NCBI GenBank assembly: GCA_947246475.1
Contig: CAMXSH010000004.1
Coordinates: 26,701-90,700 of the forward strand
Direction of reading: 5' to 3'
From: an uncultured Roseburia sp.
GTDB taxonomy: Bacteria; Bacillota; Clostridia; Lachnospirales; Lachnospiraceae
Length of the DNA: 64,000 bases
In this document: one piece after another, positions 7,945 to 64,000 of the stretch
How the letters are laid out: every line of letters begins with the position of its first letter
Numbering within the stretch: the stretch's first letter is position 1
Notes under the pieces: model-generated
Seen by the model: the letters and a program-made list of their open reading frames with translations, nothing else
Told to the model about the DNA's origin: nothing
Databases searched by the model: none
Made by a program: the position numbers and the translations under genes

Positions 7945-7962
7945 TAGCAGGAGGTAAGTAAG

Positions 7963-9000
7963 GTGAGTGTGACAACAAGTAATTTTGGGACGACGAAGGA
8001 TGGGAAAGAGGTAACGCTCTATGCCATTGAAAACAAAAATGGAATGAAGGCAGAAGTGATCGATTATGGGGCAAATATTGTCAGACTGTTTGTACCGGAC
8101 AAAGAGGGCAGGCTGGACGATGTTGTACTGGGGTTTGATGATGTGGCTGGCTATGAAGGGAATGGCTGCTTCTTTGGATCCTTTATCGGAAGACATGGAA
8201 ACCGGATCGGGGATGCCAGATTTGAATTAAATGGTGTTACTTATGAGCTGGAGAAAAACGATGGAAAGAATAACCTTCACGGTGGAACACCAGGATATAA
8301 CCATGTGATGTATGAGGCGGCAGCTATGGACAACAGCGTGACCTTCTATAGAGTCAGCCCGGACATGGAGCAGGGGTATCCGGGAAATCTGGAAATCAGC
8401 GTAACCTATACAGTGACAGATGAGAACGAGCTCAAGATCAGTTATCTGGCAAAATCTGATAAGGATACACTTTGTAATGTGACAAATCATTCGTATTTTA
8501 ATCTTAAAGGACACGACGGCGGAGAGATCACAGATCACAAAGTGTGGATCCAGGCAAAGGGCTTCACGGAGACTACAGATGATCTGATCCCCAATGGAAA
8601 TATTGTGGATGTGACGGGAACTCCGATGGATTTCCGCGAGAAAAAAGCGATCGGGGATGATATAGAGGCGGATTATAAGCCTCTTAAGATCGCAGGTGGT
8701 TATGATCATAACTTTGCCCTGGACAAAACTCCAGGCAAGGTAGAGAAGGTGGCAGAACTTTCGGAGGAAACTACAGGACGTACTATGGAAGTCTATACGG
8801 ATCTTCCAGGTATGCAGCTCTATACCGGAAACTTTATTCAAAAAGAAAATGGAAAAAATGGCACGGAGTACACGAAGAGAACAGGAGTATGCTTTGAGAC
8901 ACAGTTTTTCCCGAATTCTGTGAACGTGCCAGCTTTTGATTCCTGTGTACTGAAAGCTGGGGATGCTTTTGCCAGCACGACCATCTACCGGTTTTGTTAA
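7963..9000 (+). CDS. galM: Aldose 1-epimerase (galactose mutarotase)
   Basis: GRHGNRI, NLHGG, GYPGNL, TNHSYFNL, GYDHNF and CFETQ motifs. Confidence 0.93.
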   Translation: MSVTTSNFGTTKDGKEVTLYAIENKNGMKAEVIDYGANIVRLFVPDKEGRLDDVVLGFDDVAGYEGNGCFFGSFIGRHGNRIGDARFELNGVTYELEKNDGKNNLHGGTPGYNHVMYEAAAMDNSVTFYRVSPDMEQGYPGNLEISVTYTVTDENELKISYLAKSDKDTLCNVTNHSYFNLKGHDGGEITDHKVWIQAKGFTETTDDLIPNGNIVDVTGTPMDFREKKAIGDDIEADYKPLKIAGGYDHNFALDKTPGKVEKVAELSEETTGRTMEVYTDLPGMQLYTGNFIQKENGKNGTEYTKRTGVCFETQFFPNSVNVPAFDSCVLKAGDAFASTTIYRFC

Positions 9001-51040: not shown

Positions 51041-51145
51041 ATATTGACCAGGTGAATTAAAATTGTTTTTCTTCGGTACAAACAGAAATAAATGTGTTAT
51101 ACTATATTCAGTTCGTTGTGTAAGAATTAAAGGAGAGCAGTGCTT

Positions 51146-52330
51146 ATGTTTAGAAAATTAAAAGTTGACAATTTTAAATCATTAGTGAATTTTTCTATTG
51201 ATTTTTCGCCTATGAGTGTGATTATTGGCAACAATGCCACAGGCAAGAGTAGTGTTTTGCAGGCAATTGATTTCTTGTGCAGTTCAGTAAAAGAAGATTT
51301 TGGGATTATGTTAGAACGTCGGGGCTGGTCGGCAGATAATATCAAGTCTAAATTAATAAATTCAAACAAAATTCATTTTGAGAGTAATATTTTACTTTAT
51401 TCGGATGAAGGAGATCTTAGTTATGACTGGAAAATGGTTTTGTCGATTTATACTGGAAAAAATGAAGTGAGTTTGCTCTCTGAAAGTCTTGTGTGTAATG
51501 GAGAAGAATTGTTAGTGTATCAAAAGGGGAAAGATGGACTGATTAAAGATGAATATAAAGATATTAATATCTTACCCAGAGCGCTGGTGATTCATTCCTC
51601 TGTATTACGAATGTTGAACCGAGATGAGAAGTTGGATTTTCGGATTAAACGTTTTGTTGACTTTTTAGAAAAGTCTGCTTCTTTTGAGATGCTTTCGCCA
51701 AATGAAATGAGACTTAGCAGCCGTGGTGTGAAAAAAAGCATTGGAATGTCTGGGAAAAATTTACCATCATTTATAAAGCAAATGACATCAGAGCAAAAAA
51801 AAAGTTTTATGAATAAGCTGACGTTTCTGTTGGGTGATAGAATTTCTGGAGTAGATGCTAAGACGCAGGGAAAACCTGGTTGGACTCAGATCGATAGTGT
51901 GGAAAAGTATAAAAATAAGGAGATCCATGTATCTTCAAAAGAGATGAGCGATGGAATGCTACGCTTGTTAGCGTTTGTTGCTATCAGTGAAATAAAAGAG
52001 TCCAATGCAACAATGCTTTTAGACGAGGTAGAGAATGGTGTAAATACGAATTATGCGGAGCAGTTGTTAGAACTTCTTGGGAAAATGTATGAAGAGAGAG
52101 GACATCAGTTGATTTTGACAACTCATAGCACGGTATTTATGGACTATATTCCACCAGAAAATATTGTTTATCTGTATCGGGATGATGACGGATACACAAA
52201 GTCTGTGCAACTTTTTGAAAGAGAACAGATGAAAGAACAACTGGACTATATGTATCCAGGAGAGATATTGCTTAATATGTCACAAATGGAGTTGTTGGAT
52301 AAATTACTTGCATATCGTGAGGAAGGTTGA
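51146..52330 (+). CDS. ABC/SMC-like AAA ATPase (AAA_15/AAA_21, COG4637-like)
   Basis: N-terminal KLKVDNFKSL, Walker A GNNATGKSS, signature-like MSDGMLRLL, Walker B LLDEVENG and H-switch LTTHS. Confidence 0.9.
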   Translation: MFRKLKVDNFKSLVNFSIDFSPMSVIIGNNATGKSSVLQAIDFLCSSVKEDFGIMLERRGWSADNIKSKLINSNKIHFESNILLYSDEGDLSYDWKMVLSIYTGKNEVSLLSESLVCNGEELLVYQKGKDGLIKDEYKDINILPRALVIHSSVLRMLNRDEKLDFRIKRFVDFLEKSASFEMLSPNEMRLSSRGVKKSIGMSGKNLPSFIKQMTSEQKKSFMNKLTFLLGDRISGVDAKTQGKPGWTQIDSVEKYKNKEIHVSSKEMSDGMLRLLAFVAISEIKESNATMLLDEVENGVNTNYAEQLLELLGKMYEERGHQLILTTHSTVFMDYIPPENIVYLYRDDDGYTKSVQLFEREQMKEQLDYMYPGEILLNMSQMELLDKLLAYREEG

Positions 52331-52331
52331 T

Positions 52332-53060
52332 ATGATGAAAATTGCTATAACCGGTGAGGGAAACACGGATTATGGGAAAAAAGAGTATGGTACAGGAGAG
52401 TGGTCGCCAGGACCAGCAATCATTTATGCTGAAAAAATAGCAAAAGAGCAAGGAATGAATGTAGAACTGTTGCCAATTGAAAAACAAGACGTCATGAAAG
52501 TAAGAGTGCAAGGACGTTCTACAAAGGGACTGTCTGGAAGAGGCATTCCGGCTAAGAAATTCATGATATTGAAGAATAAGAATAATTGTGATGCCGGAAT
52601 ATTTTACTGTGATGCTGATAAGGGAACAGGAACCAAAAGCAGCAATTGCTCAGCGGTCGTTAAACATTATGAAGAGGTGTATGAAGAAGTAAAGAATGGA
52701 TTGAGTTCAGATCAAGCCATTCCAATGATACCCTTAAGTATGATAGAGTGTTGGATGTTAGGAGATAAAGCAGCTTTGGAACAAATATTTCATCTTTCTA
52801 TTTCTGAAAGTAAACTGCCGGATAAGCCAGAGTATGTCTGGGGAGCAAAAACGGATCCTGATAGTGACTATCCGAAAAATTATTTTGTACGACTAATTCG
52901 TAGCTTGGATCGTCGGTATGGTACATATCAATCTTGTCAGGAAGATTTTAATAAAATTGCAGAGCACTCAACAATCTCAACATTACGAAAAACCTGTCCT
53001 CTTAGTTATGAACGTTTTTACACAGATTTTATTAATTTGCTTAAAAATGTAAATAAATGA
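52332..53060 (+). CDS. TOPRIM-like protein (DUF4276-like)
   Basis: ITGEGNTD (conserved Glu), YCDAD (DxD), MIECWMLGD, PE...YPK and CPLSYERF; starts 2 nt after the ATPase stop. Confidence 0.7.
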   Translation: MMKIAITGEGNTDYGKKEYGTGEWSPGPAIIYAEKIAKEQGMNVELLPIEKQDVMKVRVQGRSTKGLSGRGIPAKKFMILKNKNNCDAGIFYCDADKGTGTKSSNCSAVVKHYEEVYEEVKNGLSSDQAIPMIPLSMIECWMLGDKAALEQIFHLSISESKLPDKPEYVWGAKTDPDSDYPKNYFVRLIRSLDRRYGTYQSCQEDFNKIAEHSTISTLRKTCPLSYERFYTDFINLLKNVNK

Positions 53061-54083: not shown

Positions 54084-54428
54084 GGGCTTGTACTGGTTTC
54101 GACAGGCCGGCTGAAGATGGAGAAGCTATCCGTGGGCTGTGACCACGTTAAAACGCAGAAAAAATTAAACGCTGACGATAATAGATTAGCATACGCAGCC
54201 TAAGTGCTGCTGTCTGACCTGGAGCACCTACACTCTGGGAGCCAGGCATCAATGATGTAGGAAACGACGTATATTAAGCTTTGCGTATACGGGCGTATCA
54301 TGAAGCTACTAAAGCCTGAAGGATGTTCATTTCCGTCAGGTGGAGGGAATGTAAAAGAATGAACTATGATAGTAGAAGTACATGGGATTCCGGTTTGGAC
54401 GCGGGTTCGATTCCCGCCAGGTCCACCA
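54084..54428 (+). ncRNA. ssrA: tmRNA; tag peptide (A)DDNRLAYAA encoded at 54171-54203
   Basis: 5' GGGCTTGTACTGGTTTCGAC pairs with 3' CAGGTCCACCA including a G.U pair; T-arm GCGGGTTCGATTCCCGC; internal ORF GCT GAC GAT AAT AGA TTA GCA TAC GCA GCC TAA. Confidence 0.97.
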
Positions 54429-56118
54429 GAAAGTTCTTACTCCAACCCTTACCAAAAAAATTTAATAAGCGGTTGGGTATTGTGGATAGGAAGCTCGTGA
54501 GCATTTGCTCACGAGCTTCTGCGTTCTCTGCAGTATTATATTTAGCAACCTCATCTTTGATCGGTTCTACCAGCATCGTAAATGGTTCAGCAAACTCTGC
54601 TGTCACTTTTCCGTCGGAACCAATCAGCAGGCGTTCAAAGATAGCCTGGTTCATTAGCTTCTTCATCTTATCATTTGCCAAACGGTAGGTCATGCCACAG
54701 TCAGTAATCAGTTCAATGGCATCGTCCAGTCGTTCTATAATCGTGGTAAACGTATAGTCATATGCTTTGGTCTGATGATCGATTGTGGCAAGCTGCTTAG
54801 CGATTTTCTGTTGTTCACTTTTAAGTAGGTCAAGTGGGATGGCATCGTTGTAATGTGCCTCAAGCAGTTTCTTACGCTGCCTCTCCAGCTTATCTTTCTC
54901 CCGGCGCAGCCCGTCTAACTCGGTTTCGTATTTATCACGTTCTTTTTCTATATTCTGCCTCAGCCAGTCTTCCAGATAACTGGCTATTTGGGGAGGGAAA
55001 GAATATCGGTCATAAATCTGTTCCACTTGCCGCTCGACATCCGCAATCAATACCGCCCGCTGTTTACAGTCCGTACGTTTGCTATGCCGTCCCCCGCAGA
55101 CAAAATACGGATAGCGGATGCCGGTATGGGATTTGGTATAGTTGACAATCATCCGTGCCCCACAGTTTTTACAGAAAACACTGCCCTTTAAGAAATGAGG
55201 GTGTTCACGGGTGCGCTCGCCGTTGATATGCGATTCCAGAATATCCTGCACCTGCTGCCAGGTGTCGGCATCTGTCAGTGCCGGGTGTGTCCCCTCATAT
55301 TCTGCGCCTTGGTATGACACAATGCCCTTGTAATAAGGATTTATCAGTATCTTGTTCAAGGATTTTTTGTTGATGGGCTGGGATGGGATTCTGGGCGTGG
55401 CACGGGTAGTCAGACCGCAGGCTGCCAGATGTTCTGCCAAATCCTGTACCGTCCAGTTGCCGGTGGCATATTCCTCAAATGCCAGCTTAATCAATGGGGC
55501 GCGCTCTTCATCCAGTATGACTGTCCGTTCCTCCCGTCCCTTATCGTCTGTACGCCGGATATTGAGGTAGCCAAGCGGAGCACGGCTGGGCGTCCCTCCT
55601 CCTTTAACTTTCTCGTTCAGGCCCTTTTTAACTTCGTTTGCCAGATTTTGTGAGTAAAACTCGGCGATGGAACTCATAATGCCATGCAGCAGCATTCCGG
55701 CAGGGGTATCATCTATGCTTTCTGAAGCTGATACCAGCTGGATGCCGCATTCACGCAATGTGCGCATAATGTCAACGTCATCACCGCGGTTGCGTGCGAG
55801 ACGGTCGACCTTATGTACAATCACGTAATCAATCCTGTCGGCATTTTCTTTGACATATTCCAGCATTTTCTGGAGTTCCGGGCGGTCTGCCGATTTGGCG
55901 GAAGTACCCCGGTCAACAAATTCCTTGCCAACCATTGCGCCCATGGAGAGTGCTTTTTTCTTGTTCGCTTCTCTCTGCGCAGGAATAGAGAACCCCTCAT
56001 CTGCACCGCCGCCACGTTCTGCCTGTCCGCGCGTAGAAACCCGGAGGTATGATACGGCAAACTTCGGTGTCATGGCATCGGTCAGTGACTGCATGGGGTT
56101 AGCTGTAGTGTATTCCAT
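54364..56118 (-). CDS. Large serine recombinase (integrase)
   Basis: YLRVST catalytic Ser motif, KVDRLARN, AEFYSQNLANEVKKG, recombinase domain (APLGY, NPYYKG), zinc ribbon CKNCG...C...C and a coiled coil. Confidence 0.95.
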   Translation of the reverse strand: MEYTTANPMQSLTDAMTPKFAVSYLRVSTRGQAERGGGADEGFSIPAQREANKKKALSMGAMVGKEFVDRGTSAKSADRPELQKMLEYVKENADRIDYVIVHKVDRLARNRGDDVDIMRTLRECGIQLVSASESIDDTPAGMLLHGIMSSIAEFYSQNLANEVKKGLNEKVKGGGTPSRAPLGYLNIRRTDDKGREERTVILDEERAPLIKLAFEEYATGNWTVQDLAEHLAACGLTTRATPRIPSQPINKKSLNKILINPYYKGIVSYQGAEYEGTHPALTDADTWQQVQDILESHINGERTREHPHFLKGSVFCKNCGARMIVNYTKSHTGIRYPYFVCGGRHSKRTDCKQRAVLIADVERQVEQIYDRYSFPPQIASYLEDWLRQNIEKERDKYETELDGLRREKDKLERQRKKLLEAHYNDAIPLDLLKSEQQKIAKQLATIDHQTKAYDYTFTTIIERLDDAIELITDCGMTYRLANDKMKKLMNQAIFERLLIGSDGKVTAEFAEPFTMLVEPIKDEVAKYNTAENAEAREQMLTSFLSTIPNRLLNFFGKGWSKNFLVDLAGIEPASKPESHVLLLS

Positions 56119-56152
56119 AGAATTAGCCTCCTTTCTTATCGTTGTCTGTGCG

Positions 56153-56181
56153 ATTATACCTCTGTTCGCACCTCACATCAA
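56153..56181 (-). promoter_or_regulatory. Sigma-A promoter of the integrase
   Basis: Minus strand TTGATG-17 nt-TATAAT; AAAGGAGG RBS before ATG 56118. Confidence 0.7.
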
Positions 56182-56237
56182 GTCGTTTATGCCTTTCTTA
56201 TTAAATTGTTAATAATATCAGTTTTCAGGTTATGGAA

Positions 56238-56261
56238 AGTCTGCCCGCTATGGGGCAGACT
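56238..56261 (-). terminator. Hairpin separating the cargo operon from the integrase
   Basis: AGTCTGCCC / GGGCAGACT 9-bp stem with a weak U tract. Confidence 0.5.
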
Positions 56262-56356
56262 GGTATATATTACAGCGTTTTCTGCCTTAATTAAGGTACT
56301 GGCGGGAAGATTATAACTTCCGCATTTGTTTCACGATATACTGATTGGAAAAATGA

Positions 56357-57205
56357 TTATTTGCCATAATCTTTACCGCATTCGTTTTCTATGGATTCTT
56401 CCGCCTCTTCGCCTACTGGAACAGTAACAGATTCTGTAGGTTCGGAACTCGCCACGCCTTCTGCCAACCGTTCTGGCTGATGGCCAGACTTCCAGCTGCT
56501 GTTGCCGCTTAGGTTTCGGAGCAGGATTTTCCGGGCAGATTTGTATTCGTCCCCGATAAATCCCAGACGGATGAGGAATAAACGCATCTCATATTTGGCA
56601 TTCTCCACCAGCTTTTCTGTGGCAGTAACCCGTCTCTGTGTCTTTGCCATGCGGCAGATGGCGGCAACCAGACGGCTGTATGCGTCAGCTTCGCCCTCCA
56701 AACCCTGCCTGGTAAACCATGGGAAAGAGATTTTTCCATCGGCTTCCTTAATATCTAAGGTTTCTGTTTTGAGGGCTTGCTTTAGCAGTGTCTCCTTACT
56801 GGCGATAATCTTTAGCAGATTCTCCCTTGCCAGCGGGGTAAACCCAGTATCCGGGACTGTGATAATCAGCTTGTCTGGCTGCTTTGGAATTGTTCCAGTA
56901 TCTGCCGATGCCTCCCCAGAGCTGCTGTTTGCTGTGACATCTTCCTCTGCCGTGTTTTCTGCCGCTGCATCTTCCGCCACAAAGCCTTGCTCTTGCAATG
57001 CCCTGATTAGGTTATTGGTAGTTTCCGAATTGGTTTCTTCCGGCAGCGTCAGAACACCTGCCCGGTCAATATGGCAGCCGCCTACGATGTAGGCAAAGCT
57101 GGGTGCTCCCTGATACACAGCAGGGGAATTTACTATTTGGCTGACAGCCTCCACCAACGGTTTTCTGTCGCTGCCGGTAAGTTTGTAATGGTATTGGAAG
57201 TTCAT
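56357..57205 (-). CDS. Uncharacterised mobile-element protein (often labelled 'virulence protein') sharing a C-terminal domain with the amidoligase
   Basis: AAAGGAGG RBS before ATG 57205. GxDRKxLV...YxGAPSFAY...SFPWF...RLGFIGDEYK pattern recalled from Firmicute elements; no catalytic motif recognised. Confidence 0.75.
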   Translation of the reverse strand: MNFQYHYKLTGSDRKPLVEAVSQIVNSPAVYQGAPSFAYIVGGCHIDRAGVLTLPEETNSETTNNLIRALQEQGFVAEDAAAENTAEEDVTANSSSGEASADTGTIPKQPDKLIITVPDTGFTPLARENLLKIIASKETLLKQALKTETLDIKEADGKISFPWFTRQGLEGEADAYSRLVAAICRMAKTQRRVTATEKLVENAKYEMRLFLIRLGFIGDEYKSARKILLRNLSGNSSWKSGHQPERLAEGVASSEPTESVTVPVGEEAEESIENECGKDYGK

Positions 57206-57296
57206 GTTTCCTCCTTTCTTCCACACACATCTATCACTCAGACTGCCAAAAACAGCAAGCCTTGATTTTATTTGGAGATGTGCGGGAATATCCGGG

Positions 57297-57485
57297 TTAT
57301 TCATCGGCTGTGGCTCTGCCGGTCAGAATAAAATTGGCATATTCTTTCCGGTGTTCTTCCAGATAAATAACCAGCTCATAGTAGCCTTCACGGTTGGCAA
57401 TATACTGCACCATGTTTGCATCAAACATATTCGTTTCCCCGGCTGCCCGGATGGCGAGAATCTGCTCTTTCACGGTTTCTGTCAT
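57297..57485 (-). CDS. DUF5049-like small protein (62 aa)
   Basis: VKEQILAIR...TNMFD...YELVIYLEEHRKEYANFILTG; GGAGG RBS before ATG 57485. Confidence 0.75.
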   Translation of the reverse strand: MTETVKEQILAIRAAGETNMFDANMVQYIANREGYYELVIYLEEHRKEYANFILTGRATADE

Positions 57486-57984
57486 GGGAATTACCTCCTC
57501 CCCGGTATTTTTCTGCCAGATATGTCTCCCACACAGAGTCAAGGACAGCCTGGCGCAGCACTCCGGTGTCAAAACCAGAGGATTCGTAGCCCTGCCGGAT
57601 CGTTTCAAAATAGCTTCGGGATGGCGTATCATAGGGATGGTGCGCCTCATTCATAATGTAGACCATGGCGCTCATCCGTCTGCGGTTTACCGTTATCCTT
57701 AACATTTCTTTGCGGTAGAGGTGGGGATAGCCTTCATACATATCCAGGCTTCGCTCATCACCGGGCTGCAGCCGCCAGATCAATACTGGCACCTGGCTGC
57801 CCTCATGTTTTTCTACCGTTGCCACGGCAGTGTTTTTGCCGTGGAACATCAGCCGCCAGTTGCGGAGAAATGTTGTTCCCACAATTTCCGCAGTGGGGCA
57901 GCGCCTTGCCATCTGTTCGATGTTGAGGTTAGAACCGTAGGCAATATAGAATCTGTCTCTAGCTGGATTATTATTTTTACTCAT
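57421..57984 (-). CDS. Gamma-glutamylcyclotransferase (AIG2/GGCT-like)
   Basis: YIAYGSNLN..QM..RCP and LDMYEGYPHLY (catalytic Glu) motifs; coupled to the amidoligase stop codon. Confidence 0.88.
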   Translation of the reverse strand: MSKNNNPARDRFYIAYGSNLNIEQMARRCPTAEIVGTTFLRNWRLMFHGKNTAVATVEKHEGSQVPVLIWRLQPGDERSLDMYEGYPHLYRKEMLRITVNRRRMSAMVYIMNEAHHPYDTPSRSYFETIRQGYESSGFDTGVLRQAVLDSVWETYLAEKYRGGGNSHDRNRERADSRHPGSRGNEYV

Positions 57985-58937
57985 AGGTTTCGTCCTCCAT
58001 TCTCAGTATTTCTGATGCCTATATGGCTTCTGACATTTTCCCTTGAACCATACCGCCAGGCGGCATTGCCGTCTAAATGCTGGTATAGATGTTCCCGGCA
58101 ACTCTTAAACTCGTCACCGATAAACCCGATGCGGTTCAGCCACACGCGCATGGCAAACTTCTCATTTTCCTCCTGCACTTTCCGGCTGCTGGCGCTTTTC
58201 TGCGTCAACGCCTGATGGTTCAGGGCGAGTGCCAGCACAATGTAGGCACGGATTTTCCCGGCATGCAGTGTCCCGTTAAACCCTCTCAGCTCAACAGTAT
58301 GGTTGCCATGGAAAAAGCTGTGTAGGTTGAGGAAGTAGTAACGGCTGCTGTTGTAGTGGCTGTTACGGTTTCCAGGATACTTCTCATACCAGATACTCTC
58401 AATCTGCTCAAAGGTTGTCGGTTTCTCCCTGTTCATCCGTTCCACGAGGTAGGCATCCATCTTTTTACAGTAACGCATCCGCTCCGGTGCAATCTGCAGT
58501 GCTTTATAAAGCAGGTCATTGTGTGCATAAATGATGTTAATAAAGTTGCGAATACTCCTCGGCGTATGGTCTGCCCCGTTCAGGTGGATGTGGATGCCGC
58601 AGGATTTGTTTGCAAACCCACCGGCTTTGCGCAGACGCCTTGCCAGCGCCTGCACCGTGCCGATATCCTCCTGGTAGAGCAGGATGGGGCTGACCAGCTC
58701 CACGCTGAAATGGTCGTCCGCACCGATGGTGTGGTTTCCGTTTTTGCGCTGGCAGTGAATGCTGCCGTCAGACATAAACTTCCATATGCGCCCGTCAGAC
58801 GCAGTGACTTTTTGGGTATTATAGTAATCCCCTGGGGCGGCGGTTGTGCCGTCCAGGTAATTTGCAGCGGTTTCCGCTGCCTTTTCCCGGGTAATCCCGG
58901 TAAACTCGGCTTCAATGCCGAACTGGTTGGTAAACAT
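57981..58937 (-). CDS. Putative amidoligase (COOH-NH2 ligase, Amidoligase_2-like)
   Basis: FGIEAEFTG, WKFMSDGSI, VELVSPIL, SCGIHIH, SRYYFLN and TVELRGFNGTL motifs; AAGGAGG RBS before ATG 58937. Confidence 0.88.
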   Translation of the reverse strand: MFTNQFGIEAEFTGITREKAAETAANYLDGTTAAPGDYYNTQKVTASDGRIWKFMSDGSIHCQRKNGNHTIGADDHFSVELVSPILLYQEDIGTVQALARRLRKAGGFANKSCGIHIHLNGADHTPRSIRNFINIIYAHNDLLYKALQIAPERMRYCKKMDAYLVERMNREKPTTFEQIESIWYEKYPGNRNSHYNSSRYYFLNLHSFFHGNHTVELRGFNGTLHAGKIRAYIVLALALNHQALTQKSASSRKVQEENEKFAMRVWLNRIGFIGDEFKSCREHLYQHLDGNAAWRYGSRENVRSHIGIRNTENGGRNL

Positions 58938-59169
58938 TTGGCTTGCCCTCCTTTTCTGACAGCACAGTGCGAAACGGGGGCATCCACGGATGCGCCCCGG
59001 ATTCTGGGTGCGCACCATGGCTGCCGTATGTTTACTTCGTGTTTCTGTTACGTGCTAGGGTTAGACCTCCTTTCTTGTCCACATCTATCAAGCGGCTGAT
59101 GTATTACCATATTGCTTCTGCCGCTTTCATAGATATTAATGATATGCAGTGGGGATATCTGATTTGGTG

Positions 59170-59394
59170 CTATGACATGATATCCCCCTTATTTTCTGCC
59201 GGCAGATACCCGGCCAAAGCGGTTTTTGCCAGGGATGCCGTCTCTTTGTTCGTTTCTTTCTCTTTCGCATTCTCGATTGCAATAGCAATAAGCGCCCTCC
59301 CAATCTTTTCTATATCAGGGTGTTCCCGAAAGTCTGGTGTAACCCTTACATTATGAGCAGATGACGGCCGTCCACGTTTTCTTTTATTGTTCAT
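59170..59394 (-). CDS. Small basic-then-helical protein (74 aa), possible DNA-binding protein
   Basis: ATG overlaps the MTase TGA; KRKRGRPS AT-hook-like segment followed by an amphipathic helix (PDIEKIGRALIAIAI). Confidence 0.6.
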   Translation of the reverse strand: MNNKRKRGRPSSAHNVRVTPDFREHPDIEKIGRALIAIAIENAKEKETNKETASLAKTALAGYLPAENKGDIMS

Positions 59395-60563
59395 GCTGCC
59401 TCCTTTTCTGCCCCGGCGGCTGCATTTTCCAGCCATACGGCTTTAAGGCGCAGGCCAAGGGCGTGTATCACATTGACGGTTACGGCATTGCCAGCCTGTT
59501 TATATGCCTGAGTATCAGAAGTCACAGCCAGCAGTTTATCAATCTGCTTATCAGAAAACCCCTGCAGCCGCAGGCATTCTTTCGGGGTAAGGCGCCGGAT
59601 CCGCATATCCGTGTCCACAACCGCCTTATCGGCATGCGTGGTCAGGGTGTAGGAAATGCCATGCCCTACACGTGCGCGTTTTTGGTTCTGGCTGACATAG
59701 GAAGTGTCGACAGAATCGCCGGGTTTCGCCTCACTGTATCCCCGCCTGGTGGCCTCTTTGATGAGGAGGACGCCATCGCGTGCCTGCCCGCTGCCAAGCC
59801 CTTTGGCATAGCTGGCAGTAAGGGTGCGGGCGGACTCCCGGGTATCCGAGATGCCGTCCCGGCTGCTGCAGCTTACGAGATACAGCCCGGTTTTCCCGCC
59901 ACCTCCCCCGGAACTGGCGAGCTGGGTGCAGGCTACGCCGCTGGGGTCGTAGACTCTTGCCCCCTGCGCCCCGCCGACGATCTGTATAAGAGCTTTTCCA
60001 TCTGTTCCCGGGAGAGGAAGTATTTTTCCGGCACATTTTGGATCAAGATATCCGACAATGTAGACCCGTTTCCGTGACTGCGGGACTCCAAAACTCTTGC
60101 TGTTAAGCACCTGCCATTCCACACCATACCCAAGTTCTGATAGCGTGCCAAGGATGGCTGTAAATGTCCGTCCTTCGTCATGGCTGAGCAGTCCGGGAAC
60201 GTTTTCAAGTATAAAAAACGCAGGGTGTTTGGCTTTAAGGATACGCGCGATGTCAAAAAAGAGCGTGCCTCTCGCATCCTGGAAACCACAGCGTTTTCCG
60301 GCAATGGAGAAACTCTGGCAGGGGAATCCTGCGCAGAGCAGGTCAAAGTCCGGCATTTCTTCTGCTTTGATGGTTGTTGCGTCTTCATAGTAGGTTTCCT
60401 TTGGGTTAATGTGATACATATTCCGGTATGCCTTGTCGGCATGCGTGTCAATCTCGGAGTGGCCGATGCAGGCAAAGCCCCCGGCTCGCTCCAGGCCGGC
60501 ACGGAATCCCCCGATACCGGCAAACATATCGAAAAAACGAATATTCTTTATGTTCATGGGCAT
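59391..60563 (-). CDS. DNA (cytosine-5) methyltransferase
   Basis: Motifs I (FAGIGG), IV (GFPCQSFS), VI (LENVPG), VIII (PQSRKRVYIVG), IX (RRLTPKECLRLQGF) and X (YKQAGNAV). Confidence 0.96.
   Translation of the reverse strand: MPMNIKNIRFFDMFAGIGGFRAGLERAGGFACIGHSEIDTHADKAYRNMYHINPKETYYEDATTIKAEEMPDFDLLCAGFPCQSFSIAGKRCGFQDARGTLFFDIARILKAKHPAFFILENVPGLLSHDEGRTFTAILGTLSELGYGVEWQVLNSKSFGVPQSRKRVYIVGYLDPKCAGKILPLPGTDGKALIQIVGGAQGARVYDPSGVACTQLASSGGGGGKTGLYLVSCSSRDGISDTRESARTLTASYAKGLGSGQARDGVLLIKEATRRGYSEAKPGDSVDTSYVSQNQKRARVGHGISYTLTTHADKAVVDTDMRIRRLTPKECLRLQGFSDKQIDKLLAVTSDTQAYKQAGNAVTVNVIHALGLRLKAVWLENAAAGAEKEAA
59933..60523 (-). other. Stop-free +1 overlapping frame inside the MTase gene (possible second polypeptide)
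   Basis: 196-aa ORF with an internal ATG at 60277; contains TLSDILIQNVPEKYFLS. Translation is unproven. Confidence 0.4.
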
Positions 60564-60666
60564 TCTTCCTTTCTTAGAATTACTAAAACAGTTACAGTAA
60601 CAGTTTGTCATCTCCAGACCCTTAGCACAGCTAAGGCTGGCAGGGCAGGGTAAACTGGCAAATTTG

Positions 60667-60909
60667 TTATTTCTTTTCCGGTTTATTTTTGTGGTCTGTT
60701 TTACTGTGTTTGTTTATATCCTCAAGGAGCATCTTGACAAATTTAGCTGCTTTGGCATCCCCTTCCTTTTCTGCTTCATGGAGTGCCTTGGTCAGCATGT
60801 CTATTGCCTGGTCATGGGTAAGTGTCATTTCCCAGTCAATGATTTTTCCGTTTTCGTCCCGGTTCACCCACAGTGATATGCTGTCGGGACCACTTGCATT
60901 GTTGTTCAT
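60667..60909 (-). CDS. Hypothetical protein (80 aa)
   Basis: AGGAGG RBS; flanked on both sides by CTTAGC-nnn-GCTAAG palindromes. Confidence 0.6.
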   Translation of the reverse strand: MNNNASGPDSISLWVNRDENGKIIDWEMTLTHDQAIDMLTKALHEAEKEGDAKAAKFVKMLLEDINKHSKTDHKNKPEKK

Positions 60910-61035
60910 AAGCCTCCTTATGGCATTTATTAAACTGAAACAGTGGTTAAAATAATCTTTCTAAGAAATATGTCCTTTGCCGTTTTCGTGTCCTGTCCCT
61001 TAGCTGGGCTAAGAGCCTGGAAGACAAGTGGCTGC

Positions 61036-61995
61036 CTAACACAGCATGGCATCATCCCCTCCATACCGGATCAGCCGGTCCAGTTCCTCATCCGTGATGA
61101 CGGCAAAGAGCCGGGGCTGCCCCACAAAAGCGGCGTGGATATGCTCCGCTAAATGTTCTTTGCGTTTCTTAGTTGGCACGATCCAGACCGCCAGCGGGAA
61201 CATGCCATGTTCTTTCTGCTCCAGTCCGCTGTGGTAGTATTTGTGGTAACGCTGGCATTTTTCTATAATCTTGGTGGGAGATTCGGTGTCCAGGTCAATT
61301 TCCAGAAAATAGCGGTCTTCATATTCTGCGGAGGTAAGAGCAGCATACAGGTCTGGTTTGAGGGCAACATGTTTTCCATGTTCACTGTAAACACGCCAGC
61401 ATTCCGGCTCCGGCTGCAGTGCGGACAGTTCCAGTCCTGTCTCCTGGCTGATCTCCAGAATACGGATGGAGGCTTCTGCCACGGCGAGGGTATGTGCCAG
61501 GAAATATGGGCTTGGTTCAAATGTCCTCCTTATCGGATAGGGTTTATGTTCATGCAGGCGCAGCAGACGCTCCCCGGCATGGGTGGTATGCCAGATGAGG
61601 GATGCCGAGCCTGCCCTCACTCCACCAATGCGCCGTGAGAGGCTGTCAACCAGCCCTAATTCCTTCAGCTTTTTGAGGTTGCGGCTGGCAGCCCGCAGGG
61701 CAGCGAAGGGATTTGCCGCATTCGTAAAATGCAGCCGCTGAACCTGCCCGCTCATCAGATAGCGGTATCGCCGAACCGAGAGCAAGACCTCCTTGTCACG
61801 CTGACTGAGGGAAATGTCCAGTTCTTCCAGTTTCTTCTTAGACAAACGGAGATGCTGTCCAGAGGTGCTGCTGCCAGTCTGGGAATCCGTAGTGGGAACG
61901 GAGTAGGAATCGCAGACCTTATACCGGGAAAATCCCGATACGGAGGGAGTTTCCGCTTTTGCTTTGCTGGCTCCGTTCGTTAGTCGGCTCGTCAT
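61036..61995 (-). CDS. Replication-relaxation (Replic_Relax) family relaxase-like protein
   Basis: N-terminal wHTH-like region, HTLAVAE, LKPDL and FLEIDLDTE (PD-(D/E)xK-like); ATG overlaps the coupling-protein stop. Confidence 0.85.
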   Translation of the reverse strand: MTSRLTNGASKAKAETPSVSGFSRYKVCDSYSVPTTDSQTGSSTSGQHLRLSKKKLEELDISLSQRDKEVLLSVRRYRYLMSGQVQRLHFTNAANPFAALRAASRNLKKLKELGLVDSLSRRIGGVRAGSASLIWHTTHAGERLLRLHEHKPYPIRRTFEPSPYFLAHTLAVAEASIRILEISQETGLELSALQPEPECWRVYSEHGKHVALKPDLYAALTSAEYEDRYFLEIDLDTESPTKIIEKCQRYHKYYHSGLEQKEHGMFPLAVWIVPTKKRKEHLAEHIHAAFVGQPRLFAVITDEELDRLIRYGGDDAMLC

Positions 61996-64000
61996 GGTCG
62001 TTTCCTCCTTCCAATTGTTGCATTTTCCCATTCCTGCCCGGTGTCACATCCGTCAGAAAACATACTGAGGTATTCCTCTTCAATTTGTTCCGCTGGGACA
62101 CCATAGGTGGCTTGGCTCTTTGCCTTCAGTTCTGCGGCATTATGCAGGGCTGGCGGTGGCGGCAGCGTCCTGCCCTGAACCCAGCCAACATTTCTGCCGT
62201 TTGACTGGAATGAGGTATAAATCTGGTAACGGGGCAGTGCCATAAAATCTTCAGCCGTGAGTTCTAGTGCCATCGCTGCTATGTCTTTGGCATCCCGGCT
62301 GTTTAGTCCGAAGACGATTTTGTTCCTGGCGTTGGCGTCTATCCCGGAGCGGATATTAATCGGTAACTGATCACGGTATTGGTGTGCCAGCGTCAGCCCA
62401 ACACCCAAGCCCCTGGCTTGCGCTAAAGCGTCAGAAAGGTCGGTTGGGAGTGACAGATAATCCTGCAGCTCGTCAATATAGATTTCTACAATGTGCCGCT
62501 TCTCGGCTGGGATACCCGCCCTTGACAGCGCCAGAGTCCAGGTTAGTCCAACAATCAGACTGCCGAGCAATCTGGCACTTTCTCCTCCTGTCAAACCTTT
62601 ATTGAGAGGAATCAGTACAATGCGACGCTTGTAGAATAAATCTGTCAGGGAAAACTTTGGCTTTGCCTGTCCTAATACGTTTCTCAGTCCGGGGCGTAAA
62701 AGAAACTGGCGCAGCTTGTTCAGCACGGGTTCAGTCTGCTGTCTACGCTCCGTCTCCCTGAGAGCATTAAACTGCTCCCAGAATGGTTTTAACGCTACCT
62801 TGTCTTTTATGATGCTGGTAATCTTGTAGCGAAAACTATCATCAGTCAACAGCGGAGGCAACCATAAGAGGGTAGCATTTTCCACTTCCACCAGTGTCAG
62901 CAGTGCCGCATTCAGGATATCTGCGATTCTCACACCCCAGCTGTCACTCCAAATTTCTTTGAGAACCGAAAGGATGGCATCGGCAATCAACGATGGGTTG
63001 CCATAGTCCTTAAACGCCAATGGGTTAAACCCACAGGGAGCCGGATCGGACGGGTCAATTACCACCACCTCGTCCATGCGTTCTTCTGGAATCCGCATTA
63101 GTATATCTGTTACCAAATCTGCCTTCGGATCAAGCACGAGGACACTTCTCCCGGCGTTAATATCCGCCAGAATCAGATGTAGCATGGCAGTTGACTTGCC
63201 GCTACCAGTCGGACCGATCAGGTGGCAATTTTCTAGGCTGTCCCATGGGGAAATACTCAGTTTCTTGGGATTTACTGCATCCATGGAAACGGCAAAGCTG
63301 CGGTCATTATTCTTGTTGATGGGACTGCGATACCAGTCCGGTGGTAGTGTCTGTTTGGGATGCAACCCCGGTGTCCCCGGCAGTTCTTCCTCCCCAGCGG
63401 CTAATAACAGGAAATTTGCAAGCTCCTTCGACGAAAGCTGCAGGGGAAAATGCCAGGGGATGCGGTTATTGTTAAGGTCGTCTGGTTTGGTGGATTCTTC
63501 ATGGATATGCACCCCTGCTGTCTCCAGCACCTTAAACGCGCTGACAACGTTCCGTAAGCGAGAAACCGCCCCATCCCCAGACACTCCAATGCGGATTGCT
63601 GCCTGGAAGATATACTGTTCGGCTTTCTCCCGGACTGCTTTCCGGGTTTCTGCGGAGGCTTTCTGCACATCACCCAGCAGAATCTGTAACCATGTTGCAT
63701 TCGGGTCCGATAAGTTGGCTGGCACTGGGGAAGGTGCATTTGCTCTCCCCAGTATAATCTGCACGACAGCTTCCGAGTCGCTCTTGTTTTCTGATAATGC
63801 TGCCAGTCCTGCTCGGATCACTGCCTGTGTGATGTCAGTCTTGAGGGGCAGGGACGGATGGCTGATTTTGAGCTGTCTGGCGGTACTAATAGGTGTGCGT
63901 GCGGTTTCTTCTGCATCATGGAACTCGATACTGCCATGGGCTTTTACTGCTTTTTCTATGTCCGCAATATACCTTTTATCTGCACCCAGAAGATAATGAA
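61992..64000 (-). CDS. Type IV coupling protein / VirD4-TraD-like ATPase, 5' end beyond the window
   Basis: Walker A GPTGSGKST, LDPKAD, FNPL, YIDELQDY (Walker B) and LAHQY. The frame stays open from 63821 up to the window edge. Confidence 0.9.
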   Translation of the reverse strand, partial: HYLLGADKRYIADIEKAVKAHGSIEFHDAEETARTPISTARQLKISHPSLPLKTDITQAVIRAGLAALSENKSDSEAVVQIILGRANAPSPVPANLSDPNATWLQILLGDVQKASAETRKAVREKAEQYIFQAAIRIGVSGDGAVSRLRNVVSAFKVLETAGVHIHEESTKPDDLNNNRIPWHFPLQLSSKELANFLLLAAGEEELPGTPGLHPKQTLPPDWYRSPINKNNDRSFAVSMDAVNPKKLSISPWDSLENCHLIGPTGSGKSTAMLHLILADINAGRSVLVLDPKADLVTDILMRIPEERMDEVVVIDPSDPAPCGFNPLAFKDYGNPSLIADAILSVLKEIWSDSWGVRIADILNAALLTLVEVENATLLWLPPLLTDDSFRYKITSIIKDKVALKPFWEQFNALRETERRQQTEPVLNKLRQFLLRPGLRNVLGQAKPKFSLTDLFYKRRIVLIPLNKGLTGGESARLLGSLIVGLTWTLALSRAGIPAEKRHIVEIYIDELQDYLSLPTDLSDALAQARGLGVGLTLAHQYRDQLPINIRSGIDANARNKIVFGLNSRDAKDIAAMALELTAEDFMALPRYQIYTSFQSNGRNVGWVQGRTLPPPPALHNAAELKAKSQATYGVPAEQIEEEYLSMFSDGCDTGQEWENATIGRRKRP

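Follow-up and report, generated by a model that had tools for sequence, protein, structure and literature searches.

Genes and features at the locus

The window, i.e. the whole stretch of 64,000 nucleotides that was analysed, contains a tmRNA (ssrA) gene and, on the opposite strand, an open reading frame (ORF) for a large serine recombinase (LSR) that overlaps the tmRNA gene by 65 nt (Table 1). As the initial annotation described it, and as the ORF listing and the sequence confirm, the last 20 residues of the LSR (VDLAGIEPASKPESHVLLLS) and its TAG stop codon are the reverse complement of tmRNA positions 54364-54426. The identical fusion of an LSR to antisense tmRNA is found in a congener (G010). 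From 54084 to 54425 the tmRNA gene is host DNA, and its terminal CCA (54426-54428) comes from the element; the insertion leaves the mature tmRNA sequence unaltered.

Table 1. Features at the junction of the tmRNA gene and the element, in positions of the window.
Feature	Position	Strand	Basis or remark
tmRNA (ssrA) gene	54084-54428	+	ARAGORN; Rfam RF00023, 159 bits, full length (model 1-374)
ORF of the integrated-form LSR, 584 aa	54364-56118	-	ORF listing, Pfam
19 codons (DLAGIEPASKPESHVLLLS) and TAG, antisense of the tmRNA T-arm and acceptor stem	54364-54423	-	Replace the 160 codons of the circular form
Crossover core CCA (two acceptor-stem C and discriminator A73)	54423-54425		Comparison of attB of G001, attL of the window and attR at G000:C54:5731-5733
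Element-encoded part of the integrase, codons 1-565	54424-56118	-	Reconstruction; comparison of homologues
P' arm of attP (right half of attL)	54426-54460	+	attP reconstruction and repeat search
Left 9.6 kb of the element (~20.8-21 kb)	54426-64000		Continues to C4:96148, then C54:1-5733; Pfam
Hairpin 1, tmRNA-sense transcript	54442-54476	+	CCAAC...GTTGG; P' motif pairs with a third copy of the motif
Hairpin 2, 15-bp stem (54489-54520) and small stem, with T-rich tail (54519-54543)	54489-54543	+	
Promoter-like site of the integrase gene, TTGATG-17-TATAAT (56181-56153), and ribosome-binding site AAGGAGG before ATG 56118	56119-56181	-	

Three Pfam domains are recognised in the LSR ORF, namely Resolvase (PF00239, E = 4.5e-32, residues 21-174) with the motif YLRVSTRGQ, Recombinase (PF07508, residues 204-295) and Zn_ribbon_recom (PF13408, residues 310-366), and the AF2 model of a homologue (P0013) predicts long paired helices at 378-474. 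The protein has the parts by which LSRs are defined: a catalytic resolvase domain with the serine motif, a Recombinase domain and then a zinc ribbon with a coiled-coil insertion. Only sub-threshold matches to CcrB, CcrC and XisF are obtained in NCBIfam (119 bits against a cut-off of 900), and a sequence search of the PDB with the LSR returns matches to the catalytic domain only. The genome otherwise contains no close homologue of the LSR.

The left part of the element carries the LSR gene and genes for a GGACT protein, an amidoligase, a C5 methyltransferase, Replic_Relax and a type IV coupling protein; the neighbours of the LSR gene encode a 315-aa protein with no Pfam match, the GGACT protein and the amidoligase. 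T4SS-DNA_transf and Replic_Relax are present, and no VirB4 is seen among the ORFs scanned, which are a part of those of the element. On the contig that holds the far end of the element there is an ORF of 190 aa with a Phage_integrase domain, the tyrosine-recombinase catalytic domain, and no N-terminal DNA-binding domain (C54:195-767). The element is colinear with a 21,302-bp element in G010. Carrying an LSR, Replic_Relax, a VirD4-like coupling protein, methyltransferases and cargo, it would be an integrative mobilizable element.

Integration junctions and the crossover site

The far junction, attR, lies on a separate contig (G000:C54), where DNA of the element is joined to a downstream terminator of the G001 type (98% identity). 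The empty sites in the congeners G001, G006 and others run to ...GGTCCA and then diverge, and relative to these sites the insertion is exact. The trinucleotide CCA is the sole sequence common to attB, attL, attR and attP, and the same core is found in G010. That only 3 bp are common to the junctions fits a serine recombinase, and short att sites without long direct repeats, as found here, are characteristic of LSRs. When a second or displaced copy of the ssrA end was sought, only T-arms of tRNAs were matched, none of them a displaced fragment, and there was none at attR.

From the junctions, attB is predicted to be ...CAGGTCCA-TTTTG... and attP to be ...GATAATC-CCA-CCAGAAAG.... The P' arm contains, in this order, CCA, GAAAGTT, CTTACTCCAA (54436-54445) and a run of seven A (54454-54460), and it mirrors the P arm on contig C54, which contains TTGGAGTCAAG and a run of six T. 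The core, with the arms TTGGAGT(C)AAG and CTTACTCCAA on either side, forms the centre of attP, which is an imperfect palindrome. Among the junctions listed, the P' arm is kept in 46 out of 46.

Circular and integrated forms of the integrase

The check suggested in the initial annotation, i.e. finding the far att junction, rebuilding attP and translating the C-terminus of the circular form, yields a C-terminus different from that of the integrated form. When the ends of the element are rejoined, a single ORF of 725 aa is obtained with the crossover at codon 565, the GTG codon of V565 straddling the crossover; homologues have ...NFFGxGWSxxFLV in common up to this point and diverge beyond it. Upon integration, 160 C-terminal residues are lost and 19 tmRNA-antisense residues are gained, resulting in a protein of 584 aa, and the lost 160 codons now lie at G000:C54:5249-5733, the other end of the element. 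The same split gene is found in a second species, where the G010 element, contained in a single contig, gives an ORF of 724 aa when rejoined.

Since attP lies within the integrase ORF, the circle and the integrated copy encode different C-termini. The earlier proposal that the excised circle encodes a different tail (725 aa against 584 aa) therefore stands, except that the end of the circular form is a 160-residue module with two helix-turn-helix (HTH) motifs and not a short tail; the alternative of the same tail in both forms is excluded by the reconstructed attP. With attP in the ORF and C-termini that differ between the integrated and excised states, the element has the properties of those that carry the att site in their own integrase gene.

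A function for the tmRNA-derived tail was considered and rejected, because the length of the tail in relatives (from none to ~50 or more residues) merely tracks the target tRNA, according to which its sequence varies as well. The 19-residue tail would be a by-product of integration with no function of its own.

The C-terminal module

In the circular form, the LSR core is followed by a linker, which is predicted poorly and contains attP, and this in turn by the C-terminal module. The linker is probably flexible, judging from the full-length model of P0013, in which residues 560-639, including the junction, are predicted with pLDDT < 50. The 160-residue module comprises a helix, a β hairpin and two HTH motifs of the resolvase/transposase type, and HTH_7 is matched in two stretches of it (E = 1e-12). 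Its AF2 model (mean pLDDT 75.7) predicts a helix at 4-19, strands at 34-54 and two three-helix units. A fold search with the module gives nothing at E ≤ 0.001, the nearest folds being Cbp1, the DNA-binding domains of Mos1/SETMAR and the paired domains of Pax, all weak; because these best folds are weak tandem-HTH matches, the module may be called 'paired-like' by resemblance only. The PDB sequence search with the module likewise gives weak HTH matches, with 2LVS first. The circular form ends in ...SRWDYEQK, which belongs to a folded HTH module and is not an ssrA-like tag.

The dN/dS ratio is 0.034 in the core and 0.146 in the tail, and dS is reduced in the linker that codes for attP. Judged by these ratios, the C-terminal module is under purifying selection. 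This also accounts for the 'double-HTH proteins' in annotations of the far ends of elements of this kind, which are severed 3' parts of the integrase gene.

Relatives of the integrase

A search with one genome per species among ~185,000 species finds 478 relatives of the LSR. In 69 of the best 80 of the 478, spread over two phyla, a convergent tRNA or tmRNA gene is present at the junction in a fixed register. LSRs that are 89-95% identical to that of the window are found at tmRNA, tRNA-Val and tRNA-Ala genes, and a collection of plasmids contains no near relative (best matches < 30% identity). The fusion of LSR and tmRNA is not due to chance, because the same fusion is found in G010 and the same register in those 69 relatives.

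The fixed register also bears on the question of which enzyme integrated the element. A tyrosine recombinase could have done so, with the LSR as a passenger at the edge; tmRNA genes are classic targets of tyrosine integrases (PMC4383910), and the element does carry the 190-aa ORF with a Phage_integrase domain. That ORF, however, lacks the N-terminal DNA-binding domain, the junctions have only 3 bp in common and no displaced ssrA fragment, attP is an imperfect palindrome about its core as LSR sites are, and the LSR adjoins the tRNA 3' end in 69 of the best 80 relatives. It is hardly credible, considering these facts, that a tyrosine recombinase was responsible.

Uninterrupted homologous genes, coding for 667-748 aa, exist. 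P0013, P0012, P0063 and L081 align through the junction to the C-terminal SRWDYEQK/KSWEYPRK, and both flanks of the junction are conserved (FLV and xLSxLxSxxY, on its two sides). A relative of the P0013 type has a 744-aa gene on element-only contigs, and residues 1-594/598 of P0013 are 97.7-99.3% identical to the tmRNA-fused copies in L071, L055, L059 and L058. The copy in L059 is that of Massiliimalia massiliensis Marseille-P2963T, a cultured strain. A contig with the attP form (L026) shows no terminal overlap that would indicate circularity; the contig is partial, and attP lies within it with genes of the element on either side. Nine additional genomes, from Bacillota and Actinomycetota, contain intact C-terminal fragments 17-25 kb from the LSR and on the same strand, their position on the contig of the LSR being an apparent one derived from matching coordinates.

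The overlap might be trivial, in the sense that ~565 residues make up the whole LSR, integrated or not, and the double-HTH ORF at the opposite end is a separate accessory gene, in frame by chance, so that there is no switch. McMurdie et al. weighed such a trivial reading for DsiB (PMC3146451), the truncated form retains all the canonical LSR domains, and the seven attR junction codons read are all ATG or GTG, from which a separate translation of the fragment is conceivable. Such start codons should not be counted as evidence, however, because three of the four possible host bases give one by chance and the junction codon has no Shine-Dalgarno sequence before it. Moreover, the frame is continuous through attP in every element rebuilt or read, and the uninterrupted genes and the conserved residues on both sides of the junction speak for one protein. 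A trivial overlap is therefore considered unlikely.

Hairpins and a putative terminator at the junction

The native terminator of the tmRNA gene is displaced to attR, and the new 3' trailer, which has a strong hairpin as well as a T-rich tail, comes from the P' arm. CCA is encoded by none of the 31 host tRNA genes, and here it is supplied by the element. RNAfold gives -45.6 kcal/mol for 54426-54540 (z = -7.1). Relatives show a hairpin equivalent to hairpin 1, and G010 shows a compensatory change in hairpin 2. The latter is part of the integrase ORF, in which it codes for EAREQMLTSF, and is located between the integrase core and ssrA; it is oriented to stop transcription in the tmRNA sense and not that of the integrase mRNA. 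The initial annotation's statement that no terminator separates the two genes thus holds for the integrase mRNA, for which the terminator-like element is oriented the other way, but not for the tmRNA sense, in which a hairpin and a terminator-like stem are present.

In 44 of 66 loci the integrase ORF contains a terminator-like hairpin with the orientation of the tRNA, as compared with 7 of 264 control windows, the 66 loci being mutually related and not independent samples. The T-tract after hairpin 2 is weak in the subclade of the window (CTGCGTTCTCT), and termination is consequently less certain there than in the other subclades. The embedded hairpin would terminate transcription of the tmRNA or tRNA in place of the displaced terminator, and would shield the integrase gene from convergent read-through. 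The earlier suggestion that integrase transcription dampens trans-translation finds no support; the terminator-like element conserved in the family points the other way, to an insulation of the integrase gene from tmRNA read-through.

Should the embedded hairpin act in both directions, the integrase mRNA would end in it with no stop codon, and the protein would be tmRNA-tagged and degraded, so that integration silences the enzyme. The hairpin does lie inside the ORF, and a T-rich stretch follows it in the integrase sense, too, in 21 of the 66 loci. The T-tracts are nevertheless biased toward the tRNA sense (44 against 21), and the same hairpin is present in the ORF of the circular form, from which full-length product must be made. 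Silencing of this kind is very improbable.

Proposed mechanism and significance

It is highly probable that the element was inserted by its own LSR at the 3' end of ssrA, with attP in the integrase ORF; we further infer an embedded terminator, a difference between the isoforms and a recognition of tRNA ends. On the evidence of the sequences, the LSR would insert the element by a crossover in CCA at the ssrA 3' end, and it would recognise generic tRNA-like 3' ends, i.e. the T-loop GGTTCRA and a terminal CCA-like end. Integration transfers the 160 C-terminal codons to the opposite end of the element, and the ORF then continues for 19 codons into antisense tmRNA. The two isoforms would be expected to differ in activity; the initial annotation suggested a switch of stability or directionality. 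The full-length form, made from the circle only, would serve integration or post-excision functions by means of its additional putative DNA-binding module, and the truncated form would be what remains available for excision.

A more tentative possibility, to which we give distinctly less weight, is a directionality switch encoded by topology. The module present only in the circle would be needed for, or restrict the enzyme to, attP x attB synapsis, the severed isoform would be competent for excision with no recombination directionality factor (RDF) or be parked until the fragment is supplied in trans, and the attP region would be both CCA donor and terminator. If this is true, a large clade in Bacillota and Actinomycetota would have become specialised in tRNA-like genes, with their universal T-loop and acceptor end.

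For inserting large DNA, serine integrases are the principal tools. The prevailing view is that separate RDF proteins set their direction and that in nature they target protein-coding genes. The present analysis points to a populous clade of serine integrases that targets the terminal bases of tRNA and tmRNA genes without changing the mature RNA, provides the gene with CCA and a putative terminator, and alters its own protein by a whole putative DNA-binding module according to the state of integration. If the isoforms differ in activity, this would be a compact, RDF-free control of direction, and would also point to enzymes that recognise a near-universal sequence. A literature search, in an incomplete collection, found neither this clade nor the loss of the HTH module nor the embedded terminator described. 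The principle of an att site within the integrase gene is already known from DsiB, rumA ICEs, Mx8 and SSV1, and these precedents are described with neither a lost HTH module nor an embedded terminator.

Comparison with known systems

In the canonical phage LSRs, attP is outside the integrase gene, the targets are usually protein-coding genes that are disrupted, and the direction is set by a separate RDF. Like A118/LI, phiC31, Bxb1, TP901-1 and CcrB/CcrC/XisF, the LSR of the window has the Resolvase and Recombinase domains and the Zn-ribbon with coiled coil, together with short att sites and a tiny crossover. Unlike in the canonical LSRs, attP is inside the integrase gene, and the target is the end of a tRNA-like gene.

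The ssrA islands of Dehalococcoides have a CcrB-like LSR, DsiB, at the attL edge, for which full function on the circle only was speculated by the authors (McMurdie et al. 2011, PMC3146451). In both systems, the ORF of the serine recombinase overlaps attL and ssrA. The DsiB islands, however, have a direct repeat of 20 bp, and their insertion was inferred to lie in the T-loop, whereas here the overlap is 3 bp at the acceptor end and discriminator; they have a six-gene module and a small serine recombinase (DsiA), whereas none adjoins the LSR here; and the C-terminus of the circular form of DsiB was left unresolved, whereas here it is a defined double-HTH module (PMC3146451). Both enzymes are CcrB-like in a broad sense only, and DsiB is set beside the LSR of the window by description and not by sequence.

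The rumA-targeting serine integrases of streptococcal ICEs and IMEs also have the att site inside the integrase gene (Ambroset et al. 2016, PMC4701971), and the length and C-terminus of the integrase differ between the excised and integrated states as they do here. In that case a protein-coding target is disrupted or re-tailed, whereas here an RNA gene is left intact and receives CCA and a putative terminator; the rumA integrases are described without a double-HTH module (PMC4701971). In the myxophage Mx8, according to Magrini et al. (1999) as cited in PMC4701971, attP is within int, integration swaps 112 C-terminal residues for 13 (IntP/IntX), and the prophage form is less active. Mx8 may offer the best functional analogy for an isoform switch, although its integrase is a tyrosine recombinase with another mechanism and another att architecture. 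The 'suicidal' integrases of the SSV type in archaeal viruses and plasmids, including SSV1, have the att site in the integrase gene and a tRNA target, and the gene is split on integration (PMC8371274). These are archaeal tyrosine recombinases whose catalytic part is split, leaving the provirus with no working enzyme, whereas here the catalytic and att-binding core remains whole.

The ends of tRNA genes are described as the domain of tyrosine integrases (PMC4383910; 2017 IME review PMC5704250), and serine integrases were not known to target tDNAs (PMC4383910). The Islander-type tDNA islands of tyrosine integrases share with the present element the class of target and the need for the 3' end of the gene to be restored by the element. 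There, a copy of the tDNA 3' end results in a long direct repeat, whereas no part of the mature RNA is duplicated here. In place of the full-length tyrosine integrase and displaced tDNA fragment that mark an Islander, the present element has the 190-aa catalytic-domain ORF and no fragment at attR.

The integration-dependent immunity of mycobacteriophages, drawn upon in the initial annotation, involves an attP in the repressor gene and the removal of a C-terminal degradation tag by integration, neither of which applies here. The analogy is a loose one, because the att site is in the integrase gene and not in a repressor gene. Closer precedents are DsiB at ssrA (PMC3146451) and the rumA-ICE integrases and Mx8 IntP/IntX (PMC4701971).

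The LSR gene ends on the antisense strand of ssrA

The tmRNA gene is covered end to end by RF00023 (Rfam, 159 bits). The single ORF on the opposite strand is a large serine recombinase (LSR), with the catalytic motif YLRVSTRGQ, the Pfam domains Resolvase (residues 21–174), Recombinase (204–295) and Zn_ribbon_recom (310–366), and a coiled-coil-like stretch downstream of the last of these. The two genes overlap by 65 nt. As the initial annotation had it, the LSR ends in antisense tmRNA: residues 565–584 (VDLAGIEPASKPESHVLLLS) and the TAG stop codon are the reverse complement of 54364–54426. About 1 kb upstream of ssrA (51140–53060) are two overlapping ORFs, one for an AAA-ATPase (396 aa) and the other for a 250-aa partner.

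Features of the ssrA–LSR region (window coordinates) and of the severed LSR fragment (residues)
Feature	Position	Strand or sense	Source and remarks
tmRNA gene	54084–54428	+	ARAGORN, one tmRNA gene found; tag ADDNRLAYAA
LSR ORF, 584 aa	56118 to 54364	opposite to tmRNA	ORF listing
Hairpin 1	54442–54476	tmRNA sense	RNA fold
Hairpin 2, 15-bp stem	54489–54520	tmRNA sense	RNA fold
Small stem and T-rich tail	54519–54543	tmRNA sense	
Fragment helix	residues 4–19		AF2; P-arm-coded, bears the conserved LSxLxSxxY
Fragment beta-hairpin	residues 34–54		AF2
Fragment HTH 1	residues 61–97		AF2
Fragment HTH 2	residues 113–146		AF2

Crossover site

When the ssrA region was searched against 40 relatives, two situations were seen. 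In the close congeners G001 (98% identity) and G006 (96%) the match ends at the 3' end of the tmRNA gene; in G010, a mouse-gut MAG labelled 'uncultured Eubacterium sp.', it runs on from ssrA into the element. In the aligned 3' ends, ...CCCGCCAGGTCCA at the empty sites gives way to unrelated DNA that is for the most part rich in T and encodes no CCA, while the filled sites of the window and G010 read ...CCAGGTCCA|CCAGAAAGTTCTTACTCC.... The window's own assembly (G000, in which the window is C4:26701–90700) contains the ssrA 3' end just once; matches of 15–17 nt, considered as displaced ssrA ends, were rejected as the T-arms of ordinary tRNA genes.

The DNA 3' of the G001 tmRNA gene corresponds to G000 contig C54 from position 5731 (98% identity). 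The junction there, ...GGAGTCAAGCCTTGATAATC-CCA-TTTTGGTTAAAAGAGATGAACAGC..., has the order element DNA, CCA, native tmRNA terminator. Comparison of the attB, attL and attR junctions thus confines their common sequence to CCA (window 54423–54425), which is made up of the final two bases of the acceptor stem plus discriminator A73. An overlap of 3 bp agrees with the 2-bp staggered cut of a serine recombinase. It does not agree with a tyrosine integrase, from which a longer repeat of the tDNA end would be expected. The reconstructed attP, with arms TTGGAGT(C)AAG...CTTACTCCAA and outer runs T6 and A7, is symmetrical about the two C bases, and the crossover dinucleotide would therefore be CC or CA.

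Downstream of attR lie two paralogous host genes (G000:C54:5903–7316 and 7499–8914), 78% and 92% identical to the one copy in G001.

The circular form and the severed tail

With attP rebuilt in silico by joining C54[..5733] to window[54426..], the LSR frame stays open for 160 codons beyond V565, the codon spanning the crossover, and stops at C54:5249, giving 725 aa in total. The circle thus encodes a different C-terminus, as had been proposed. The tail begins VGLSRLDSKKYQAVLNFKRQ... and holds two helix-turn-helix (HTH) units, matched by HTH_7 in two stretches (E = 1e-12), with further matches to HTH_23, HTH_38 and an IS630-type transposase HTH. Its stop codon is followed by a hairpin, as is usual where a gene ends.

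The homologous G010 element lies on one contig, with 21,302 bp between its two CCA cores; its rebuilt LSR has 724 aa and a tail 84% identical to that of the window. The G000 element (~20.8 kb; C4:81126–96148 and C54:1–5733, with a small assembly gap) is colinear with it. Between the two LSRs, dN/dS is 0.034 in codons 1–564, 0.146 in the tail and 0.10 in its HTH part, and dS is lowered in the linker that holds the attP P arm. The low dN/dS of the tail indicates that the severed piece is a maintained coding sequence.

In seven of seven attR junctions read (G000:C54:5731–5736, G010:C10 at ~29247, and loci L110–L112, L119 and L131) the codon across the crossover is ATG or GTG, so that the severed 160-aa double-HTH fragment opens with a codon that could serve as a start; it has no visible ribosome-binding site in front. 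A convergent host gene (L021:2144–3415, minus strand) could read into the fragment.

As to other genes of the element, the cargo adjoining the LSR (56357–59018), conserved in the G010 element, comprises an Amidoligase_2 gene (E = 2e-71), an AIG2/GGACT-like cyclotransferase gene and a gene for a 315-aa protein with no Pfam match. Beyond the window, a 190-aa ORF (G000:C54:195–767, minus strand; region 81% identical in nucleotides to the G010 element) has only a catalytic Phage_integrase domain (E = 2e-23) and may be a multimer resolvase or invertase.

Uninterrupted homologues

A search with LSR residues 430–725 gave more than 100 homologues of 560–625 aa that match only as far as the junction, and a few that match over the full length of the query, namely P0013 (744 aa), P0063 (729 aa) and P0012 (667 aa, with its N-terminus cut off). 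The short homologues have ...NFFGxGWSxxFLV in common, beyond which their tails differ, as in VEHTGLEPVASTLPVWRAP..., VDQTGIEPVSKNQSPVLLRA, VRLTGLEPARS... and VEISGIEPLTS; these tails are what translation of antisense T-arms should give. The long homologues run on as ...FLV(G/D)LSxxxSNxY... and align with the rebuilt tails to a C-terminal (S/K)(R/S)W(D/E)Y. P0013 is found on two metagenome contigs and P0012 on a third; all three contigs lack a tRNA gene and carry element genes to either side of the LSR; the neighbours of P0013 are Replic_Relax, DUF5049 and DUF4314 genes upstream and a methyltransferase gene downstream. Locus L081, a 79-kb contig, has an open frame of 748 codons (740 aa from the first ATG). 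Residues 1–594/598 of P0013 are 97.7–99.3% identical to the antisense-tmRNA-fused genes of loci L071, L055, L058 and L059 (the last from Massiliimalia massiliensis); therefore, the same gene is found in the attP and attL states.

Predicted structure of the tail

In the AF2 model of full-length P0013 (25 sequences, mean pLDDT 65) the LSR core is recognisable, residues 560–639, including the junction V593, have pLDDT below 50, and the last 100 residues (pLDDT 72–85) form two three-helix units. The severed fragment modelled alone (15 sequences) has a mean pLDDT of 75.7. Sequence and fold searches with the tail gave weak matches to tandem-HTH DNA binders (the CRISPR-repeat binding protein 2LVS, the Mos1 and SETMAR DNA-binding domains, Pax paired domains and resolvase HTHs), none at E ≤ 0.001. 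From the low-pLDDT junction and the tandem-HTH tail, attP lies in DNA that codes for a probably flexible linker, and the part lost on integration would be an additional, bipartite DNA-binding module.

Distribution of the arrangement

A scan of one genome per species gave 478 LSR relatives, of which the best 80 loci were examined. At 54 of these, the 3' end of a convergent tRNA or tmRNA gene is no more than 60 nt from the site that V565 predicts (modal offset -4 nt, 33 times). At 15 more the gene is slightly further on, because the LSR has an insertion before the junction, which brings the total to 69 of the best 80. The remainder comprises loci at contig ends, truncated genes, L081 in its attP form, and loci with seemingly tRNA-derived tails at which ARAGORN called nothing. 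Genes for tmRNA and for tRNA-Ala, -Val, -Leu, -Arg, -Lys and -Pro serve as targets, and the carriers belong to Lachnospiraceae, Oscillospiraceae and other Clostridia, as well as Coriobacteriales, Acidimicrobiia and other Actinomycetota. CCA and a conserved P' arm, (A/G)AAAGTxCTTACTCxAAC...A6-7, follow the tRNA end in all 46 junctions listed.

A profile search with the tail found intact fragments in 13 of 15 genomes that carry such loci, in nine of them 17–25 kb from the LSR and on the same strand; judging from matching coordinates, the fragment in these nine would be on the LSR's own contig. At the far junctions read the frame fits, as xTG followed by (G/E/D/A)LS....

LSRs 89–95% identical to that of the window occur at tmRNA, tRNA-Val and tRNA-Ala genes. 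Since their B arms have little in common except the T-loop GGTTCRAxxCC and the terminal CCA, the enzyme probably reads generic features of tRNA-like 3' ends.

Three intact severed fragments, each beginning ...MVDLSQLYSNH, stand in tandem within 9 kb at G046:C14:697169–705903 (L113, L123, L130) and resemble what several integrations at a single tRNA locus would leave behind. In a Coriobacteriales element (L116, G049:C5 at ~470.7 kb), the far-end fragment is preceded by ~50 in-frame codons identical to the LSR gene 3' end at attL (...TTFFSAHGLNKRLLV|ALSELESKYF), an intact attP-like site within an integrated element. LSRs 74–95% identical to that of the window occur in MAGs labelled Candidatus Saccharibacteria (L029, L033, L034, L045 and others), including two of ~1 Mb, G043 (90%) and G045 (74%); genomes G043, G045, G046 and G053 are ~1.0–1.1 Mb. 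Either these MAGs are mislabelled or mis-binned, or the element has recently moved between Lachnospiraceae and ultra-small bacteria.

CCA and a candidate terminator supplied to ssrA

The mature tmRNA sequence is wholly host-encoded, and CCA is added by the element. None of the 31 G000 tRNA genes (ARAGORN) encodes CCA, which leaves the integrated ssrA as the sole gene with an encoded CCA. The native terminator, directly 3' of the gene in the empty site, is at attR after integration.

In the tmRNA sense, RNA from 54426–54540 folds with -45.6 kcal/mol (z = -7.1). The opposite strand of hairpin 2 codes for EAREQMLTSF of the LSR, and in G010 this hairpin has a compensatory change from G-C to A-T. 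At the same place, other subclades have quite different stems of 13–19 bp followed by U-tracts (for example, GAAGCAGCTCGCTAGAAATAGCGAGCTGCTTTGTTTG and GGCCACATTCAAAGAAATCATGGATGTGGCCTTTTGC); the U-tract is weak in the window's own subclade. Structures were counted if the stem had 11 pairs or more and 5 or more T came after it; they occur in the tRNA sense at 44 of 66 loci, in the integrase sense at 21 of 66 and in 7 of 264 control windows taken within those genes. The 66 loci are mutually related, so that the counts give no formal probability, but the stem sequences differ between subclades. The hairpin is thus probably an intrinsic terminator of the target RNA gene, lying antisense within the LSR ORF.

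Proposed working and comparison with known systems

At the level of sequence, the switch of C-terminal tail is real and larger than first supposed. The long enzyme would be made from the circle; after integration, the core enzyme alone would be made, its tail meaningless and set by whichever tRNA is the target. Because spread of the element requires excision from the integrated state, the truncated form is presumably the one that recombines attL x attR, alone or with helpers, and the long form would then be available for integration or post-excision functions. The further suggestion that integrase mRNA dampens trans-translation is unsupported and, on general grounds, unlikely, because tmRNA is abundant and structured and integrases are usually produced in small amounts. 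The conserved candidate terminator suggests the opposite concern, that of barring tmRNA read-through from the LSR gene.

Serine integrases were not known to target tDNAs according to the Islander paper (PMC4383910), serine-recombinase IMEs are described in a 2017 review as inserting within and disrupting dispensable genes (PMC5704250), and tRNA is not mentioned in the large LSR survey of Durrant et al. What appears to be new here is a widespread LSR clade specialised on tRNA and tmRNA 3' ends, a crossover at the acceptor end and discriminator, the removal of a predicted bipartite HTH module by integration, and an attP region that also gives the target gene a CCA and a putative terminator.

Ambroset et al. 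described att sites within the serine integrase genes of rumA-targeting ICEs and likened them to Mx8 (PMC4701971). In Mx8, as cited there, the prophage-encoded IntX is less active than IntP, which parallels the proposed LSR isoforms. McMurdie et al. speculated that a Dehalococcoides enzyme is fully functional on the circle only; their case differs in having a 20-bp repeat and insertion in the T-loop, with the circular C-terminus left open (PMC3146451). In the SSV-type 'suicidal' integrases, unlike the LSR here, the catalytic part itself is split (PMC8371274).
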